Assembly (NCBI GenBank): GCA_963827165.1
Contig: CAWGZR010000011.1
Coordinates: forward strand, 32,001 to 96,000
Direction: 5' to 3'
Length of the DNA stretch: 64,000 nt
Origin: Candidatus Bathyarchaeota archaeon
GTDB lineage: Archaea > Thermoproteota > Bathyarchaeia > Bathyarchaeales > Bathycorpusculaceae
Part shown: piece by piece, positions 2,046 to 20,822 of the stretch
How positions within the stretch are numbered: position 1 is the stretch's first letter
How the letters are laid out: each line of letters starts with the position of its first letter
The notes under the pieces: generated by a model
The model's database searches: none
The model's input: the letters and a program-made list of their open reading frames with translations, nothing else
Told to the model about the DNA's origin: nothing
Translations under genes and position numbers: made by a program

Positions 2046-3474
2046 TCACCTGCTGAGAAGATAGTTTATGACGTCTATTGTGGTTATTATGTCGATAATT
2101 TTATTGTCTTCCAAGACGGCTAACGCATTCTGATTCTTCAATAGGTTAAGAGGCGCAACTATTCTTTCCTCAATATTAACGGCGGGAAGTGGCGGTTCAA
2201 GAAAATCCTTTACTGTTTGTTTGCTTGATGAAGCCCTATCGGACAGCTTTTTCATAACGGTAATTTCTCTTATGCTGCCCACTTGAACGTCGTCTTTGAT
2301 TACCGGCAGTTGCGAGACGCCGTGCACTTTCATTAAATCTATTGCCTTGCTGATACCGTTTTCTGGATCAACATAGAGTAAACCCAACTTGTTTGATTTC
2401 GTCCTCAAAATATCCCTAATTGCTATTTTTTCCTCGCCGCCCGACAGGAAACCGTTCTCAATCATCCCAGTCATCGGAGTAAAACTTGTTAAGATAATTT
2501 CTTCCAGTGTCTGGTAAAATAACCACCATAGTCTTGCCTTCTCCCATCTTCTTTGCCACTTGTAACGCTGCGAACACGGCGGCACCTGCCGAGCCACCAG
2601 TAAACAACCCTTCTTTTTGAGCTAGTTCTCTTGCGGTTAGGAAAGAGTTTTTGTCGTTTACGGTTATGATTTCGTCAACTATCTTTAAGTTTAGTGTTGA
2701 CGGAAGGAAGTCTTCGCCGATGCCTTCCACTTTGTAGGAGTGTACGTCTGCCTTGTCTTTTGTTCCATAGAATTCATGGTGATATAGTGATCCTTCAGGA
2801 TCAACGCCGACAATGCGGATGTTTGGGTTTTTTTCTTTGAGGTATTTGGCGATACCGCTGATTGTTCCGCCTGTTCCCATTGTGGCAACTAAAACGTCAA
2901 TCTTGCCTTTGGTTTGTTTCCAGATTTCTGGACCCGTTGTTTTGTAGTGTGTTTCTGGGTTTGCTTTGTTGAAGTATTGGTTTGGCATGAAGGAGTTGGG
3001 TGTTTCTTTGGCTATTCTCTCAGCAACTTTGACGTAGTTTGCTGGATGGTCCGGGGCTACATTTGTCGGGGTGATGATGACTTTTGCGCCAAACGCTCGT
3101 AGAAGGTCGATTTTTTCTCTGCTCATTTTATCCGGCAAAGTGAATATCATTTTGTAGCCTTTAGCGATGGCGGCTATTGCCAATCCAAGACCTGTGTTGC
3201 CTGAGGTTGGCTCAACGATGGTGTATCCCGGTTGTATGATTCCTTGTGCTTCTGCGGCTTCAATCATGGAGATGCCTATGCGGTCTTTTATGCTGCCGCC
3301 TATGTTGAGAAACTCGAGTTTTGCAAGAACATCACATTCTACGCCTTGTGTGAGTTTGGTTAATTTTAACATTGGTGTATTACCTATTAATTGAAGGATG
3401 TTTTCTGAGATTCCGTCCCTTGTAGGGATAGATTTCTTGAGTTTTGTGGTTTGTCTGGTTTTTTCGGTTATCAA
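2046..3474 (-). pseudogene. cbs: Cystathionine beta-synthase with C-terminal CBS pair; +1 frameshift near 2466-2468
   Basis: [20 protein letters not shown]; TGGGATGATTGA has one extra G, and removing it gives YSDDWMIENGFL joined to the CBS domains; TTG start at 3474. Confidence 0.85.
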
Positions 3475-3490
3475 TTTTGACCCTCTGTTG

Positions 3491-3505
3491 TATAACAATG
3501 TTATA
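3491..3505. promoter_or_regulatory. Operator-like palindrome TATAACAATGTTATA
   Basis: Perfect TATAAC-N3-GTTATA upstream of cbs. Confidence 0.75.
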
Positions 3506-3517
3506 AACAACCATTTC

Positions 3518-9224: not shown

Positions 9225-9238
9225 AGGCAGTGTGTGAC

Positions 9239-10190
9239 ATGAAGATAAACAATAACGTTTTAGAAACGATAGGAAAAACACCACTCGTACGCCTAAATCG
9301 AATGGCCGAAGGCATAGATGCAACCGTCGTCGGCAAACTCGAATCAAGAAACCCGGGCGGAAGCGTTAAAGACCGCATATGCCAAAGCATGATTGCCGAA
9401 GCAGAAAAACAAAGTTTAATCAAACCAGGTACAACAATCGTTGAGCCAACCTCAGGTAACACAGGCATCGGCTTAGCGATGGTCGCAGCCGTAAAAGGCT
9501 ACAAACTAATACTCACTATGCCAGAGACCATGAGCACAGAGCGACGCAACCTGCTCAAAGCATATGGTGCACAGCTTGTTCTCACGCCAGGGCCCGAAGG
9601 TATGGGTGGAGCAATTAAGAAAGCCGATGAAATAGCTGCATTAACACCTAACAGTTTTGTTCCGCAGCAATTCAAAAATTTAGCTAACCCAAAAATTCAC
9701 CGTGAAACTACAGGCCCAGAAATCTGGGAAGATACTGATGGAAAAGTGGACATTCTTAGTGTCGGGTGTTGGCACCGGTGGAACAATAACGGGCGTGGCG
9801 CAGTACATTAAGCCCCTAAAACCAGCCTTCAAAGCCGTGGCTGTCGAACCAGCCGCTTCGCCAGTGCTGAGCGGAGGACAGAAAGGACCGCACAAAATTC
9901 AGGGGATAGGCGCCGGCTTTAAACCCGACGTGTTAAAACTCGATCTGGTGGACGAAATATTCAAAGTAACGGATGACGAGGCTATCAAGACGGCGAGGCA
10001 ACTGGCGCAAAAAGAAGGCTTACTTGTAGGCATATCTTCGGGTGCAGCAGCGTATGCCGCGCTTGAAATCGCGAAGCGACCAGAAAACAAGGGCAAACTC
10101 ATCGTTGCCATTTTGCCAGACACAGGCGAACGCTACCTTAGCACTGTATTGTTCCAAGAGCCAGCAACAAGCGCAACCCCAAACATTTAG
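9239..10190 (+). pseudogene. cysK: Cysteine synthase A with +1 frameshift near 9756
   Basis: [17 protein letters not shown] in frame 1; [27 protein letters not shown] in frame 2; removing one T restores [11 protein letters not shown]. Confidence 0.9.
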
Positions 10191-14584: not shown

Positions 14585-15403
14585 TTATTTTTTCATTGTT
14601 CTTGCGGCTTCTTTAAGTTCAAAGGCGGCTGCTTCCAATTCCTTAAGCATGGTGGAAGTGTCTTCTTGGTTTTTTCGGATTATATCGATGAATGCACTTC
14701 CCACTATGACGCCGTTGGCTCCCGCCTCGACGATTCGTTTTACGTGGCGCGGTTTTGAGATTCCGAAACCCACTGCCAGATTGATCTTTCCCGCTGTGAC
14801 AGGGAGAACCCGTTTTACAAGTTGGATTGTTGAATCTTCCACAGATGTTTTGGCACCCGTCACGCCGAAGTGAGAAACAAGGTAGACAAACCCCGAAGAG
14901 CACTGAACTATTTTTTTGAGCCGCTCAGGCGTAGTAGATGGAGCTGCCAGAAAAATCGTGTCCAACCCATAGTCTGAAGCAGCTTTCCGAAAATCGCCTG
15001 CTTCTTCAACTGGTAAATCGGGAACAATGACGCCATCGACCAAGTATTCTTTGGCTAAACCGCAGAACCTATTCAACCCTAACCTGAAAACTGGATTGTA
15101 ATAAGTCATTATCACGATTGGCGTGTCGTGGTTTTCACGTATTTCTTTTGCGATTTGCAACACTTTTTGAGGCGTCGTGCCCGAAGCTAACGCTCTGACG
15201 CTTGCAGCCTGAATTGTCGGTCCATCCACTATCGGGTCAGAAAACGGCAACCCCAACTCCAAAACATCTACGCCTCCTTTAATCAGGGCGCCTGCAATTT
15301 TCGGTGTAAATCCCGGATTTGGGTCACCAGCCATAACGTACCCGACAAGTGCACCGCAGCCGCGTGATCTGGCTTTTTCGAAAGCACCCTTTATGGCGCT
15401 CAT
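14585..15403 (-). CDS. trpA: Tryptophan synthase alpha chain
   Basis: [22 protein letters not shown]. Confidence 0.97.
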
Positions 15404-16596
15404 ATCTTCTCCCCCAAGTAATCAGCGATTGTTTCGACATCTTTATCTCCACGTCCAGAAAGCGTCACAACAATTGACTGGGTTTTTTTCAGTTTAGCCG
15501 CAAGCTTAATGGCGAAAGCTACGGCGTGCGCTGATTCTAAAGCAGGCAGGATTCCTTCCTCTCTCGATAGGGTCAAGAAAGCCTCCACCGCCTCCTTGTC
15601 AGTTGCCGAGGCGTACTGCGCTCGCTTGATGGTTTTGAGGAAGGAGTGTTCAGGTCCAACACCGGGATAATCTAAACCTGCTGAAACGCTGCTTGTGTTC
15701 TGGATTTGCCCGTTCTGATCCTGCAAAACATAAGTAAGCATACCATGGAATACCCCTTCGGTTCCCGCGCCAAGAGATGCCGCATGTTTGCCGGTTTCTA
15801 AACCTTCACCCGCAGCTTCAACGCCGTAAAGCGCGACGGATTCGTCGTTTTCGAAAGGGTAGAAGGTGCCCATCGCGTTGCTTCCGCCACCGACGCAAGC
15901 GACGAGGGCGTCCGGGAGGCGTTGTTCTTTTTGTTGGAATTGCAGTTTGATTTCCATGCCGATTACGCTTTGGAAATCGCGTACAATCATCGGGTATGGG
16001 TGAGGTCCAACAACGCTGCCGATCAAATAGTATGTGGTTTCGAGGTTGGTTACCCAGTCGCGAAAAGCCTCGTTGATCGAGTCCTTAAGTGTTTTTGACC
16101 CGGCTTTGACGGGATGTACTTCGGCGCCGAGGAGTTTCATGCGGAAAACGTTCAGCCGTTGCCGCTCGCAATCCTCTGTTCCCATGTAAACCTCAGCTTT
16201 CAACCCTAAAGCGGCGCATGCAATCGCCGTTGCCACGCCGTGCTGTCCTGCTCCCGTCTCAGCTATTACACGGCATTTGCCCATCCGCTTGGCGAGTAGC
16301 GCCTGCCCAATTGTATTGTTTATTTTGTGGGCTCCACCATGGGCGAGGTCTTCGCGTTTAAGGTAGATTTTGGCGCCTCCTGATTTGTGAGTCAAGTTTT
16401 CAGCAAGGTAGAGGGGGGTTGGTCTGCCTACGAATTCGAATAGGTAATCATCCAGCTGCTTTTGAAATGCCGAGTCTTTTCTTGCTTCTGTGTAAGCTTC
16501 TTCTAGCTCCTTGATTGCCGCCATTAGAACTTCGGGGACAAAGCGTCCGCCGTATTTGCCATATTTCCCATCGACAGGATAATCGGTTAACTTCAT
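15400..16596 (-). CDS. trpB: Tryptophan synthase beta chain
   Basis: [35 protein letters not shown]. Confidence 0.97.
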
Positions 16597-17372
16597 TTTG
16601 CTTTCACAAACTCCGTCACTTTTTCTTCAATATTGCCGCTTGACATGATCGATGAGCCGATAAGAAAAGCCCTGGCGCCACTTGCACGCAGGAAATTTAT
16701 GTCAGCAGGCATTTTTATTCCGCTTTCACTTACCACCAGTTTTCCGTTTGAACTGTTTTTCTCCAAAATCTCTTTAGTGACGTTCAAATCCACCTTAAGA
16801 GTTGCTAAGTCACGGTTGTTTATCCCAACCAAATCCGCATCCGTCTTAGTGGCAGACCTGAACTCCTCTTCAGTGTGGGTTTCAAGAAGCACCTCAAGGC
16901 CAAGGGTATGCGCGCCAGCAATCATTTCGGCAAGGGTCTTCTCAGAGTAGCCGCGATCAAAAAGCGTCTTAATAAGCAGGATCGCGTTTGCTCCCATCTT
17001 TGCTGCAGCGTACACCTGTACAGGGCTAAGAATAATGTCTTTCATCAAAAGGGGAATTTGTACGGCTTCTCTCGCAGCGGCGAAAGCATCCAGGCTTCCG
17101 TCGAAATGTTTCGGCTCGGTCAAAATCGACAAAGCAACGGCTCCGCCCCTTTGCATTGCCCCTGCAATTTCAGCCGAGTCAACGTTCTGCCTGATTTTCC
17201 CCGCTGATGGGGAAGCGGTTTTGATTTCCGCAAGGACCGGTACCGCTCGGCATTGTATAATCGCTTCCCGGAGGTTCAGGCCCCTGCTTTCCGCCTGCTT
17301 CGCGCAATCGTAGTATCCATCTTCGATGGTTACTTGCGCGACCCCGGCCAATACATCAAGATAGTCATTCAT
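16593..17372 (-). CDS. trpC: Indole-3-glycerol-phosphate synthase
   Basis: [31 protein letters not shown]. Confidence 0.95.
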
Positions 17373-18426
17373 ACATTGCTTCATACTCCTCAAGCTTGGT
17401 TAAGTTCCCGCCTGAAGCTCTTATTAACGCTATAAGTTTTTCGTAGGCTGCCCCGCTGAAGATTGATTTGCGGGCTAGCTCCATGCCGCATAAGAAGTTA
17501 TCTGCTTTGCCGCCTAAAACGATTCCCGCTGCGCTGTTGACTAGTACAAACTCCATTTTCGGGTCATTTGCCGCTATGTTGCCGCTCAAAATTTTGAAGA
17601 GTATTTCCGTGTACTCCTCCGTAGAGGTTGCTTTCAAATCGGTGACACTCGCCTGCTTAACTCCAAAGTCGGTTGGAGACGCTTCGAGCTCGGTGACTTT
17701 GCCATCCTTCAACCATGCAACAGCGGTCTTTCCAACCGTAGAAATTTCATCCAACCCAATCAGTCCGTGGACGACCATTGCTTCATCGCAGCCCAGTCGA
17801 TTCAACGCGTAAGCCATAGTCGAGACCAGTTTAGGGTCGTAAACGCCTAGCAATTGGGCGTTGGCGCCTGCGGGGTTAGTTAATGGCCCGAGAAGGTTAA
17901 AGGCGGTGCGGATGCCGATTTCCCGTCTGGCTTCTGCCGCGTACTTCATAGCTGGATGAAAAGCTGGAGCAAACATGAATCCCACCCCGATCTGCTCTAT
18001 TGTGGCTTTGACCCGCTGAGGCTCTAGATGCAGGTTTAACCCTAGTTTTTCAAGAACGTCGGCGCTTCCGCTTTTGCTGGTCACCGCTCTGTTTCCATGC
18101 TTTGCAACTGGGACGCCTGCGCCCGCGATTACGAAGGCTGCGGCGGTGCTAACGTTGAATGTTTTTATTTTGTCTCCGCCAGTTCCACAGGTGTCCACGA
18201 GTCGACCCTCAATGTGGGGGTGAATTTGGCAGCTTTCCTCACGCATGACAGAAGCAAAAGCGATGAGCTCTTCAACCGCTTCGCCCTTCATCCGCAATGC
18301 GGTTAGGAACGCGGCAGTCTGAGAGTTTGTTGCTTTTCCCGACATGACTTCCCGCATAATTTCGTCTGACTCGAGGCTGGTTAAGCTGTTGCCTTCAATG
18401 AGTTTCTGTATGCCTTCCTGAATCAT
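17365..18426 (-). CDS. trpD: Anthranilate phosphoribosyltransferase
   Basis: DTCGTGGD, KHGNR, SGSAD. Confidence 0.95.
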   Translation of the reverse strand: MIQEGIQKLIEGNSLTSLESDEIMREVMSGKATNSQTAAFLTALRMKGEAVEELIAFASVMREESCQIHPHIEGRLVDTCGTGGDKIKTFNVSTAAAFVIAGAGVPVAKHGNRAVTSKSGSADVLEKLGLNLHLEPQRVKATIEQIGVGFMFAPAFHPAMKYAAEARREIGIRTAFNLLGPLTNPAGANAQLLGVYDPKLVSTMAYALNRLGCDEAMVVHGLIGLDEISTVGKTAVAWLKDGKVTELEASPTDFGVKQASVTDLKATSTEEYTEILFKILSGNIAANDPKMEFVLVNSAAGIVLGGKADNFLCGMELARKSIFSGAAYEKLIALIRASGGNLTKLEEYEAMYE

Positions 18427-19010
18427 CGCCGTGCGCCCTCCAAAAAATTCTTGATGATTAGTTTGCCGTCGTCGCATATGATGGATTCAGGATGGAACTG
18501 TACGCCTTCAATCGGGTACTTGACATGGCGGACCCCCATGATTTCTCCATCTTCGATGCATTCTGCTGAAATTTCGAGGCAATGAGGCAAAGAGTTGCGT
18601 TCTCCAGCCAGGGAATGATACCTGATCCCTGTGAATGGGTTGCGGACTCCTATGAAGATGCCTTTTTGGTCGTGCTTTATGGTGCAGGTTTTCCCGTGCA
18701 TAAGCCGCTTTGCATGAATAACTTTTCCGCCGTAAGCATGAATTATTCCTTGGTGACCAAGACAGACTCCCAAAGTGGGAGTTGTTTGACTCATAGTCTG
18801 AAGGATTCTTGTGCAAACCCCGAAGTACCGTTCGTCCTCGGGTGTACCGGGCCCTGGCGAAATCACTATCCTGTCGGGTTTAAGCTCAATTAACTGTCTC
18901 ATTGTGACTATGTCGTTACGATAAACTATAGGGTCCCCGCCAAGTTCGCCAACGTACTGGACAAGGTTGTAAACGAACGAATCGTAATTGTCAATTACTA
19001 GCACCTTCAC
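18423..19010 (-). CDS. trpG: Anthranilate synthase component II
   Basis: IDNYDSF, GVCLGHQ, QFHPES. Confidence 0.95.
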   Translation of the reverse strand: MKVLVIDNYDSFVYNLVQYVGELGGDPIVYRNDIVTMRQLIELKPDRIVISPGPGTPEDERYFGVCTRILQTMSQTTPTLGVCLGHQGIIHAYGGKVIHAKRLMHGKTCTIKHDQKGIFIGVRNPFTGIRYHSLAGERNSLPHCLEISAECIEDGEIMGVRHVKYPIEGVQFHPESIICDDGKLIIKNFLEGARR

Positions 19011-20420
19011 TGTGCTGCGCCTCCTGCCAGCTCGAGTGCTCGCATCAGCGCCGCCGCTTTATGCTCCGTTTCAAACCACTCCTGCTCGGGCACAGAATCC
19101 GCCACGATTCCTCCTCCAGCCTGAATGTACGCTTGGTTTTTCTGTGCGAAGAGGGTTCTAATGGTTATGGCGAAATCTGCGTTTCCGTTGTAAGAGAAGT
19201 AGCCCACGGCACCAGCGTATGGCCCACGCCTCACTGGTTCCAACTCATCGATAATTTCCATAGCTCGCACCTTAGGCGCACCCGAAACGGTTCCCGCTGG
19301 AAAAACAGCTCGCAATGCGTCAAAGCTTTGTAAGTCCTCCTTAAGCTGCCCCACCACGCGGGAAACAATGTGCTGAACATGGCTGTATTGCTGTACCTTC
19401 ATAAACTCGGGCACATGAACGCTTCCAAACTTGCTGATTCGACCTATATCGTTGCGTGCCAAATCCACAAGCATCACATGCTCTGCCCGTTCCTTTGGAT
19501 CGGCAAGCAACTCAGTTACTAATCTGTTGTTTTCCACCGGCTTCTCGGCGACGGGCCGGGTGCCAGCAATCGGGAACGTTTCCACAGTTCTGTTTTCGAC
19601 ACGCACAAGCATTTCTGGGCTTGCACCGACGATTTGGCGGTTGCCGCAAGTGTAGTAGTGCATGTATGGAGAAGGGTTGATAGTTCTCAGCGCCCCATAG
19701 AACGGAATTAGGTTGCCTTTTACCTGGAACTGGAAGCGTTTTGATGGGACAACCTGGAAAATGTCGCCAGCGGTTATATACTCTTTCGCTTTTTCCACCG
19801 CAGCTTCATAGGCTTCTTTTTTGATGTTAACTTTTGGCTGTGTGTACGATAACTCCACTGGGTCAAGTGGCTGCCTTAGGAGCTTTTCAACTTCGGGCAG
19901 TCGGTTTTCTCCTCGGCAGTAGTAGAATGCTTGCTGCTTTAGGTGGTCGAAGACAAAGCCGTCATCGAAAATTCCCATTTCCAAGTCTGGAAAACCAAGG
20001 TCGTCCACGCTCTTTTGGGGCAGTTTTTCCCAGTAGCGGACGCTGTCATAGGAGATGTAGCCGACCGCTCCGCCGACGAATCGGAATTCACTGTTTGAAA
20101 CTGTTTGGTCTTTGAGGAGGCGCTGTAACGTTTGGAGGGGGTCGCTTGTTCGTTCAGAAGTGGTTTCGCCTGTTTCTTCGTTTCTTATTTGGGCTTTGCC
20201 ATTTTTGGTTTGGATGGTTATTTTTGGGCCGAACCCGATGAAAGAGTATTGTGCGAGTTTTTTTGGTCCTTCGCTTGATTCTAAAAGATAGGCTGTTTTG
20301 TGCTCTTTTTTTAGCTTTGAGAATATTTCGAGGGGTTGCTGTTTGAGGGTGATCTTTTTGATTTCTAGGGCGTTAGCTGGTTTGGTTTGTGTGACTGTTG
20401 CGCCAAAGGCGATTCCCCAT
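19007..20420 (-). CDS. trpE: Anthranilate synthase component I; 5' end reachable only by +1 frameshift, non-canonical start or indel correction
   Basis: Frame open from 20425 through YLLESSEGP...YSFIG and [10 protein letters not shown] to [12 protein letters not shown]; no in-frame ATG/GTG/TTG above 20008; ATG at 20420 is out of frame. Confidence 0.9.
20373..20420 (-). other. Overlapping trp leader [18 protein letters not shown] with CTT-TGG-C site
   Basis: GGAG 11 nt before the ATG; single Trp codon directly after CTT. Confidence 0.5.
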
Positions 20421-20495
20421 GTCTTTCAATTCTCCGTATGGTTCATAAATATACCTTAATGTATTATTTAAGGCTTATCTGCACAAAAATGTGCA

Positions 20496-20822
20496 TTAGA
20501 GCTTGGGCTTAAGCGCAACGCTCATCCAATCCAAATAAGCCTTCGAGCCCTCAACAATCGGAAGAGCCAAAACCTCAGGAACCTCATAACTATGCAAACG
20601 TTTAACATGCTCCGCAACTTCCGCAAACAAGTCCAAACGCGACTTCATTAAAATCAAAGATTCCTCACCCTTCTCGATATTGCCAACCCAACGGAAAAAC
20701 GAGGTAATCGGGCTAACAATATTGGCGCAGGCGATCAAACGTTCCCTGATAAGCAATTGCGAAATCTTTTCTGCTTCATCTTTGGTTTTAGTCGTAACAA
20801 AAATGACGATGTAATCGTTCAT
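20496..20822 (-). CDS. cutA: Divalent-cation tolerance protein CutA
   Basis: LIACANI, HSYEVPEVLALP. Confidence 0.92.
   Translation of the reverse strand: MNDYIVIFVTTKTKDEAEKISQLLIRERLIACANIVSPITSFFRWVGNIEKGEESLILMKSRLDLFAEVAEHVKRLHSYEVPEVLALPIVEGSKAYLDWMSVALKPKL

Follow-up and report, generated by a model that had tools for sequence, protein, structure and literature searches.

How is the trpE gene of a soil archaeon translated if the start codon that precedes it lies one base out of frame? This question is raised by a stretch of 64,000 nucleotides (the window) from Candidatus Bathyarchaeota archaeon (assembly GCA_963827165.1, contig CAWGZR010000011.1, positions 32,001 to 96,000 of the forward strand), which belongs to a 3.13-Mb genome of 14 contigs (G000, contig C11). 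All coordinates of the trpE locus given here refer to the minus strand of the window. The trpE frame opens at 20425, directly behind a TGA (20428-20426), runs free of stops for 472 codons and contains the motif AYLLESSEG; the identity of the product as TrpE follows from its Pfam matches (Chorismate_bind, 1.4e-99; Anth_synt_I_N, 6.6e-39 over residues 30-167). The first ATG, GTG or TTG of this frame is a GTG at 20008, 139 codons in from 20425, and the longest trpE open reading frame (ORF) that has a start codon covers 333 of about 470 codons. The ATG at 20420-20418 opens a different frame, frame 0, relative to which trpE lies in +1. Frame 0 reads ATG, GGG, AAT, CGC, CTT (20408-20406) and TGG (20405-20403), followed by nine codons up to a TAA at 20375-20373, and encodes a peptide of 15 amino acids with one tryptophan. 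An earlier note, made from the sequence alone, had described this layout, both the short frame behind a Shine-Dalgarno (SD) sequence and the long trpE frame with its conserved motif and no start codon above 20008, and the sequence bears out the description. The answer that we favour, with a probability of roughly 0.7, is that trpE is expressed via a programmed +1 frameshift that acts as a gauge of tryptophan. The elements on which this reading is built are the following.

20418..20420, minus strand: start codon ATG of frame 0, offset by one base from the trpE frame, identified by ATG/GTG/TTG turnover in relatives
20432..20435, minus strand: SD sequence GGAG, 11 nucleotides (nt) upstream of the ATG
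20373..20420, minus strand: short ORF of frame 0 with its stop codon, as read from the sequence; predicted product of a ribosome that does not shift
20402..20408, minus strand: putative shift site CTT-TGG-C, with a leucine codon for the P site and a tryptophan codon for the A site, from comparative data
19007..20404, minus strand: part of trpE that would be read after the shift, 465 codons plus stop; predicted product of 470 amino acids (5 frame-0 residues plus 465)

The out-of-frame layout is real and not the result of an assembly error, as appears from its conservation and from independently obtained contigs. Among relatives trpE was found in 28 of 41 genomes, and the first 30 loci already had the out-of-frame start. 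In the order, trpE was found in 159 of 301 genomes, and the 5' regions of 130 further matches were fetched among the matches listed; 5'-truncated fragments (G234, G207, G117, G103) and 23 further matches are excluded from this sample. In the class, where 113 of 251 genomes had the gene, 60 loci were fetched, with G318, G440 (twice), G447, G466 and G470 excluded. In 208 of the 218 distinct loci, from 17 families, a start codon is followed by four codons, NTT and TGG or TAG while trpE lies in +1: 156 of 158 in the order (158 of 160 before the duplicate loci L029 and L030 were dropped) and 52 of 60 in the class. The ten exceptions comprise two in-frame genes (L010 and L155) and eight loci with unrelated, ordinary N-termini (four in family f24, one in f31, two in f17 and a second copy, L218). 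The alignment of orthologues that the earlier note had proposed as a check thus gave a conserved out-of-frame start together with a conserved tryptophan codon. Named Bathyarchaeia records had the motif in phase in 35 of 38 loci, 14 of them duplicates and 21 new. The other three were a 5'-truncated locus (L253), a locus from a Firmicutes record with a normal start (L257) and one with the motif out of phase (L254). The last stands on a contig titled as a metagenome-assembled genome of a delta-proteobacterium; the best segment of its trpE is 94% identical to the Bathyarchaeia gene described here and has the same motif, with an additional frame break downstream of the site. This contig is probably mis-binned.

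At the level of contigs, X2, from a second sequencing study, spans 20331-20621 with no differences from the window, and X1, possibly from the window's own source study, spans 20200-20700 with one substitution and no indel. Neither of the contigs from these two DNA studies reads GGG in place of the GGGG behind the start codon, which is the outcome that the earlier note had named as damaging to its proposal. A 422-nt contig of a relative from a peat metatranscriptome (run X18) has 22 substitutions and no gaps, and is identical over 20398-20427. Since this RNA contig spans the site unaltered, it argues, within the limits of contigs, against correction at the RNA level. Its end at 20427, 7 nt before the ATG, was considered as a transcript 5' end and dropped, a contig end not being a transcript end. 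Another RNA contig, from run X16, covers 20200-20242 only.

The position of the frame change can be narrowed down by loci in which the trpE frame is closed. Nine loci of genus g56 carry TAG or TAA in the trpE frame directly ahead of TTT, and two loci outside the class (L273 and L275) also have a trpE-frame stop there, giving 11 such loci in all. In g56, frame 0 encodes a conserved M-G-D-L-V-W with synonymous changes (GAC/GAT, TTA/CTA). L153 has a stop codon at the tryptophan position (CTT-TAG-C). Provided that the loci share one mechanism, the stops before TTT and the TAG of L153 leave only NTT|T|GGN for the shift. A TGA at positions 2-4 also interrupts the trpE frame in 81 loci. Genes without TTTGG provide a second kind of evidence, as L010, L155 and L277 have kept the frame-0 N-terminus fused to TrpE. 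In L010 the sequence ATG AGG AAC CAC CTT GAC is read in frame as MRNHL-DNQ, with the skipped T absent. The in-frame L155 encodes MSDLP-STLR, to be compared with MGDPL|STLRS as the predicted product of L153. L277, from outside the class, starts with MRTSNPSTSDKPYLVKLNFK and encodes MRTSN..SDKPYLVKLNFK, to be compared with MRDCF|GLLASDKPRFVKLDFK for L272. L153 and L155 are the two trpE copies of one genome (G095), one with a stop in the A site and the other an ordinary in-frame gene. Comparison therefore singles out the site that the earlier note had proposed, a slip at CTT-TGG-C onto TTT with entry into trpE at GGC, through the 208 of 218 loci, the 11 loci with stops, L153 and the in-frame fusions. 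On these comparisons it is very probable that a programmed +1 shift at NTT-TGG exists. A scan of the genome for the same type of site gave 108 raw matches, among which trpE is the sole site whose +1 ORF is without a nearby start; one further start-less +1 ORF looks non-coding.

The start codon is at a fixed position in the 208 loci, and is ATG in 191, GTG in 11 and TTG in five; the remaining locus has ATA, with an ATG two codons further upstream being used. Such turnover at a fixed position indicates a real start. In 145 of the 208 loci GGAG or GAGG precedes the start by at most 20 nt, mostly by 8-10 nt, so that the 11-nt spacing in the window is at the long end of what is typical of relatives. 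At the putative shift site the P-site codon is CTT in 102, GTT in 68, ATT in 26 and TTT in 12 loci. TTT, as the triplet onto which the tRNA would slip, is found in 208 of 208, and the A-site codon is TGG in 207 and TAG in one. The A-site codon may be followed by any base (C 147, A 31, G 19, T 11). The genome encodes a tRNA-Leu with anticodon GAG and a tRNA-Trp with anticodon CCA, and UGG is read by a single tRNA species. Past TGG, frame 0 in relatives ends 0-46 codons on (median 11) and has no conserved sequence. One more element lies between start and shift site.

20411..20418, minus strand: internal SD-like tract (G GGG A ATC) that can pair with the 16S rRNA 3' end, adjoining the E-site codon; candidate stimulator

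The 16S rRNA of this genome ends in ...GGATCACCTCCT. Pairing was evaluated with RNAduplex for positions 1-12 of the short ORF against the 16S tail, with the first 12 nt of 1608 long ORFs as background. The median duplex energy was -7.8 kcal/mol over the 208 loci (-6.7 for the window locus) as compared to -3.1 for the background, of which 4% reach -7.8 kcal/mol. In genus g56 an 8-bp match to the 16S tail, GGGTGATC, ends 2 nt ahead of the P-site codon. All 208 loci have a purine at position 4, as expected if it pairs with a U of CCUCC, and G5 is invariant. By analogy to the bacterial release factor 2 gene prfB, the SD-like tract may stimulate the slip. A downstream stimulatory structure was not detected in the 50 nt past TGG (206 distinct sequences, mean minimum free energy -3.7 kcal/mol, mean z -0.39), a region consisting of 70% A+C, and no Rfam family matched around the site.

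Why should the A-site codon be one for tryptophan? A slip onto TTT requires an A-site codon that begins with T. In the genome the cysteine codons TGT and TGC (3.2 and 7.8 per thousand) are used less often than TGG (11.7), and neither ever occurs at the site; likewise, TTC is commoner than TTT (23.6 and 18.8 per thousand) and never replaces it. The glycine that follows the shift is dispensable for the enzyme, as loci without TGG have Asp or Ser there. The invariance of TGG and TTT in combination with this replaceable glycine points to selection on T-TGG itself. The six trp enzymes (14585-20404) together contain four tryptophans in 1966 residues, with none in TrpG, TrpC and TrpA, while the genome-wide frequency of tryptophan codons is 11.7 per thousand. 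The exclusive use of TGG, the scarcity of tryptophan in the trp enzymes and the analogy to known systems suggest that the trpE shift probably senses tryptophan supply.

We infer a ribosomal shift, with a rate controlled by Trp-tRNA and a role for the SD-like tract, that would proceed as follows. Initiation would occur at the ATG at 20420, and Met-Gly-Asn-Arg-Leu would be made, bringing peptidyl-tRNA-Leu (anticodon GAG) onto CUU in the P site while UGG occupies the A site. With ample charged tRNA-Trp, tryptophan would be inserted, frame 0 would be kept, and translation would stop nine codons on without TrpE being formed. If charged tRNA-Trp is scarce, the A site would stay empty, which would allow the Leu-tRNA to re-pair on UUU and Gly-tRNA to read GGC, after which trpE is translated. 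The G-rich tract behind the start codon, which can pair with the 16S 3' end and stands beside the E-site codon, would be a possible promoter of the slip. The ribosome would probably carry on into trpG, trpB and trpA via overlapping stop and start codons.

Several observations weigh against this reading. With 11.7 per thousand UGG is not a rare codon and would be slow to decode only under a shortage of Trp-tRNA; basal shifting might be low, while organisms that are obliged to synthesize tryptophan always need enough TrpE in spite of that. The core of the SD-like tract is 6 nt from the P-site codon, as compared to 3 nt in prfB. The variation of the ten bases from start to TTT resembles, in most Bathyarchaeia, that of a coding +1 frame: distinct pentapeptides number 23 in +1 (GIAFG 82, GIVFG 55), as compared to 77 distinct hexapeptides in frame 0, and positions 5-13 consist of GGN (A 73, G 63, T 67, C 5), ATH (ATC/ATT/ATA) and mostly GCN, GTN, ATN or ACN. 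Part of this variation can be attributed to pairing with the 16S tail (G5, G6, A8, U9); the preference for purine-pyrimidine at positions 11-12 and the tolerated A at position 10 are left without explanation. In 28 of the 208 loci an in-frame ATG or GTG directly before TTT could permit ordinary initiation. Finally, the evidence from RNA comes from the contig of a relative, rare variants are lost in contigs, and RNA libraries may carry DNA.

The alternative that survives best, although it is unlikely, is a constitutive +1 shift at NTT-TGG, in which an old one-base insertion is offset by a slip of fixed rate and TGG is merely a moderately slow codon. All evidence for the shift itself applies equally to such an arrangement, the single tRNA species for UGG fits it as well, and L153, which uses a stop codon, indicates that the tryptophan codon is not strictly required for expression. 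What it does not account for is that TGG is present in 207 of 208 loci whereas the rarer slip-compatible codons TGT and TGC are never used, and a tryptophan codon that gates the tryptophan pathway, together with tryptophan-poor enzymes, suits a sensor better than chance.

A shift right after the start codon, at the rare AGG or GGG of ATG-R-GGN, would yield a product beginning with Met-Gly-Ile-Ala-Phe-Gly, with NTT-TGG being used only where the +1 frame is closed. This was favoured at first, on the basis of 30 loci, and has become improbable. It has in its favour the protein-like conservation of the +1 frame (GGN with four third bases, ATH, then A/V/M/T/I; 23 versus 77 peptides), the fact that the variable positions 4, 7, 10, 13 and 19 are third positions of that frame, and the rarity of AGG (6.0 per thousand) and GGG (9.5). 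A shift at codon 2 is impossible, however, wherever a +1 stop precedes TTT, as it does in 11 loci; it does not suit the ammonia oxidizers treated below, where GGC, GGA and GGG alternate synonymously in frame 0, and it leaves the invariance of TTT and TGG unexplained. Furthermore, GGC, which is the commonest glycine codon (28.6 per thousand), occurs in just five of the 208 loci, and the purine-only position 4 suits pairing with a U of the anti-SD sequence better than it suits either coding frame. No GIAFG-like N-terminus is found in the in-frame TrpE of other lineages and the Pfam domain begins at residue 30 only, which makes protein-level selection in this region unlikely. The early preference was thus outweighed by the loci with stops before TTT, the TAG variant, the in-frame orthologues and the ammonia oxidizers.

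Very little can be said for a separate leader peptide, with TrpE starting at a non-canonical in-frame codon and the tryptophan codon acting through stalling (occlusion or mRNA stability). A trp operon preceded by a short ORF with a tryptophan codon is indeed reminiscent of bacterial leaders, and the 28 loci with ATG or GTG just before TTT would allow a start there. Against this, 143 of the 208 loci have no ATG, GTG or TTG in the open trpE frame upstream of TTT, the next in-frame start in this genome is 133 codons past the shift site, and 11 loci have a trpE frame that is not open ahead of TTT. In addition, in-frame orthologues fuse the five residues of the supposed leader to TrpE, and no downstream structure was detected (mean z -0.39). 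The caveat in the earlier note that deletion of one G from GGGG also restores the frame is true as stated, and the homopolymer, the 14-contig assembly and at least one other frame-split gene in the window could suggest an error or a recent pseudogene private to this genome, but that explanation has a negligible chance, being contradicted by the 208 of 218 like loci of independent assemblies, of which 80 have A at position 4 and hence no G run, and by the agreement of the contigs of two studies with the window.

The motif of the predicted frameshift occurs beyond the class as well. In a sample of the phylum trpE was present in 56 of 101 genomes, and 15 loci of seven other families were examined; families f46, f47, f51 and f55 are outside these 15 loci, their matches beginning far inside the protein. 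The motif was present in 11 of the 15 loci from other Thermoproteota classes (f44 1/1, f49 1/2, f59 1/1, f50 2/2, f39 6/6, f42 0/2, f52 0/1), and the f42 and f52 loci have normal starts. The form in f50 is shorter (ATG TGC CTT TGG), and that in f39 is ATG GGT GGN NNN (A/C)TT TGG. Family f39 is regarded as ammonia oxidizers because both f39 genomes tested carry archaeal amoA, and the motif is also carried by amoA-positive genomes that were assembled into a single contig. In this family codon 3 changes synonymously at its third base when read in frame 0 (GGC/GGA/GGG). A TATA-like box ends 22 nt ahead of the trpE ATG (loci L279 and L281-L285), which is the spacing of a leaderless mRNA, and the trpE message of the ammonia oxidizers is probably leaderless. 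The frameshift would then take place just 12 nt from the 5' end of the mRNA. The synonymous changes in frame 0 and the leaderless spacing support the out-of-frame ATG as the true start. As shown by comparison of the sequences, the predicted frameshift would be at least as old as the class and several other Thermoproteota classes. It is rather likely that an ancient recoding switch which senses an amino acid gates tryptophan synthesis across the Thermoproteota (Bathyarchaeia, the ammonia-oxidizing Nitrososphaeria and other classes), by means of a +1 slip where the sixth codon of the trpE message is a hungry UGG.

It is useful to compare the proposed gauge with known systems. In bacterial trpL attenuation, a ribosome at the tryptophan codons of a tiny ORF before trpE reads the level of charged tRNA-Trp and thereby sets the synthesis of the trp enzymes. 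The archaeal locus resembles trpL in having one tryptophan codon at position 6 of a 15-codon ORF, kept in 207 of 208 loci. In contrast to trpL, which is a separate ORF with a choice between terminator and antiterminator as output, the output here would be the reading frame of trpE, and the locus has a single tryptophan codon, no downstream structure and no Rfam match.

The trpE proposal is related in mechanism to prfB, which also has a short 5' frame with the main ORF in +1, a CTT-T slip by a P-site Leu-tRNA, an SD-like tract upstream of the site and coexisting in-frame orthologues, and in which, as proposed for trpE, a waiting A-site codon provides feedback by sensing the decoder of that codon (PMC12421855). 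In prfB the SD-like AGGGGG stands three nucleotides before CTTT, and its pairing with the anti-SD sequence displaces the E-site tRNA (PMC12421855). With a stop in the A site, CTT-TAG-C of L153 comes closest to prfB. The trpE site differs in that its A-site codon is the sense codon UGG, that the sensed molecule would be charged tRNA-Trp and not a release factor, that the gene product is an enzyme in the synthesis of the very amino acid that would be sensed, and that the host is an archaeon. The site is also at codons 5-6 instead of 25-26, conservation does not extend to the base behind the A-site codon, and the distance to the SD core is 6 nt as compared to 3 nt.

As in trpE, the P-site CUU of Ty1 and ABP140 (CUU-AGG-C) slips in front of a slow sense codon with limiting aminoacyl-tRNA (PMC5009743), but the tRNA concerned is constitutively scarce in Ty1 and unlinked to amino acid supply. 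Shifting at hungry codons upon starvation is described as an error of laboratory Escherichia coli with unclear natural use in a review of 2016, which in its excerpted parts contains no trpE case (PMC5009743). Antizyme (OAZ1) shares with the trpE proposal the use of recoding as a metabolic feedback controller (PMC3113565); it is eukaryotic, has a stop in the A site and senses polyamine, and its product inhibits the pathway, so that the sign is opposite. According to a review of 2021, the -1 shift of fucA1 in Saccharolobus solfataricus is the only reported programmed frameshift of an archaeal cellular gene (PMC8211752). It takes place on A-AAA-AAT in one species and has no metabolic sensing known from that source (PMC8211752). 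The main text of a genome-wide survey of frame transitions from 2013 mentions neither trpE nor anthranilate synthase, and a search of full-text literature, with subscription journals outside its coverage, gave no description of a trpE frameshift. New here would be a programmed +1 frameshift that is archaeal, uses a sense codon and senses an amino acid, with the mechanism of prfB and Ty1 and a logic that combines trp attenuation with the feedback of antizyme.

The surroundings of trpE are those of a trp operon, with cutA (Pfam) upstream and two features that flank the gene.

14585..19010, minus strand: trpG, trpD, trpC, trpB and trpA, downstream of trpE (Pfam, ORF coordinates)
20464..20471, minus strand: TATA-box-like element TTAAATAA, presumed promoter of the trp operon

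The E/G, C/B and B/A junctions overlap as GTGA or ATGA, and from these overlaps translational coupling of trpE to trpG, trpB and trpA is plausible. Relatives in the Bathyarchaeia have the same TATA-like element, some 45 nt ahead of the start. A hexamer TGTGCA (20480-20485, minus strand) stands shortly before the TATA-like box of trpE; it is TGTACA in genus g56 and other relatives (upstream regions of L145-L157). We take this hexamer to resemble the TRP box that is bound by the archaeal repressor TrpY; if the resemblance is true, it would add a transcriptional layer of control over trpE.

Other frame irregularities in the window and the genome were observed. The earlier note had mentioned further single-base indels in the window, and a gene for a pyridoxal phosphate-dependent enzyme at 9230-10190 (plus strand) is indeed split over two overlapping frames, matching positions 2-164 and then 159-295 of the Pfam PALP profile; the cause is an indel in the assembly, or else the gene is broken. 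At 2046-3510 (minus strand) a complete PALP-domain ORF (2458-3510) overlaps by 140 nt with a CBS-domain ORF (2046-2597) in a different frame, and the pair may be a cystathionine-beta-synthase-like fusion that is interrupted by a frameshift. Elsewhere in the genome, 22 other ORFs of at least 200 codons have at least 70 start-less codons at the 5' end, one of them a purF-like gene (C5:597146-598705, plus strand) with no ATG, GTG or TTG upstream of its conserved N-terminal Cys region. These start-less ends may be due to indels, unusual starts or further recoding.

To our knowledge, little has been established on how archaea, which lack the bacterial attenuation machinery, tune amino acid biosynthesis to supply. 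If the reading given here is true, the trpE site would be an archaeal functional counterpart of bacterial trp attenuation, in the form of a compact readout of charged tRNA-Trp that takes about 20 nucleotides and needs no protein factor. Among cellular genes of archaea it would be the first +1 frameshift with wide conservation, and hungry-codon frameshifting would for the first time be seen in natural use, as a metabolic sensor and a long-standing regulator. For the annotation of these organisms there is a practical side as well, in that gene callers miss the true start of trpE, which makes the gene look truncated or broken, and conclusions on the completeness of the pathway can be wrong.

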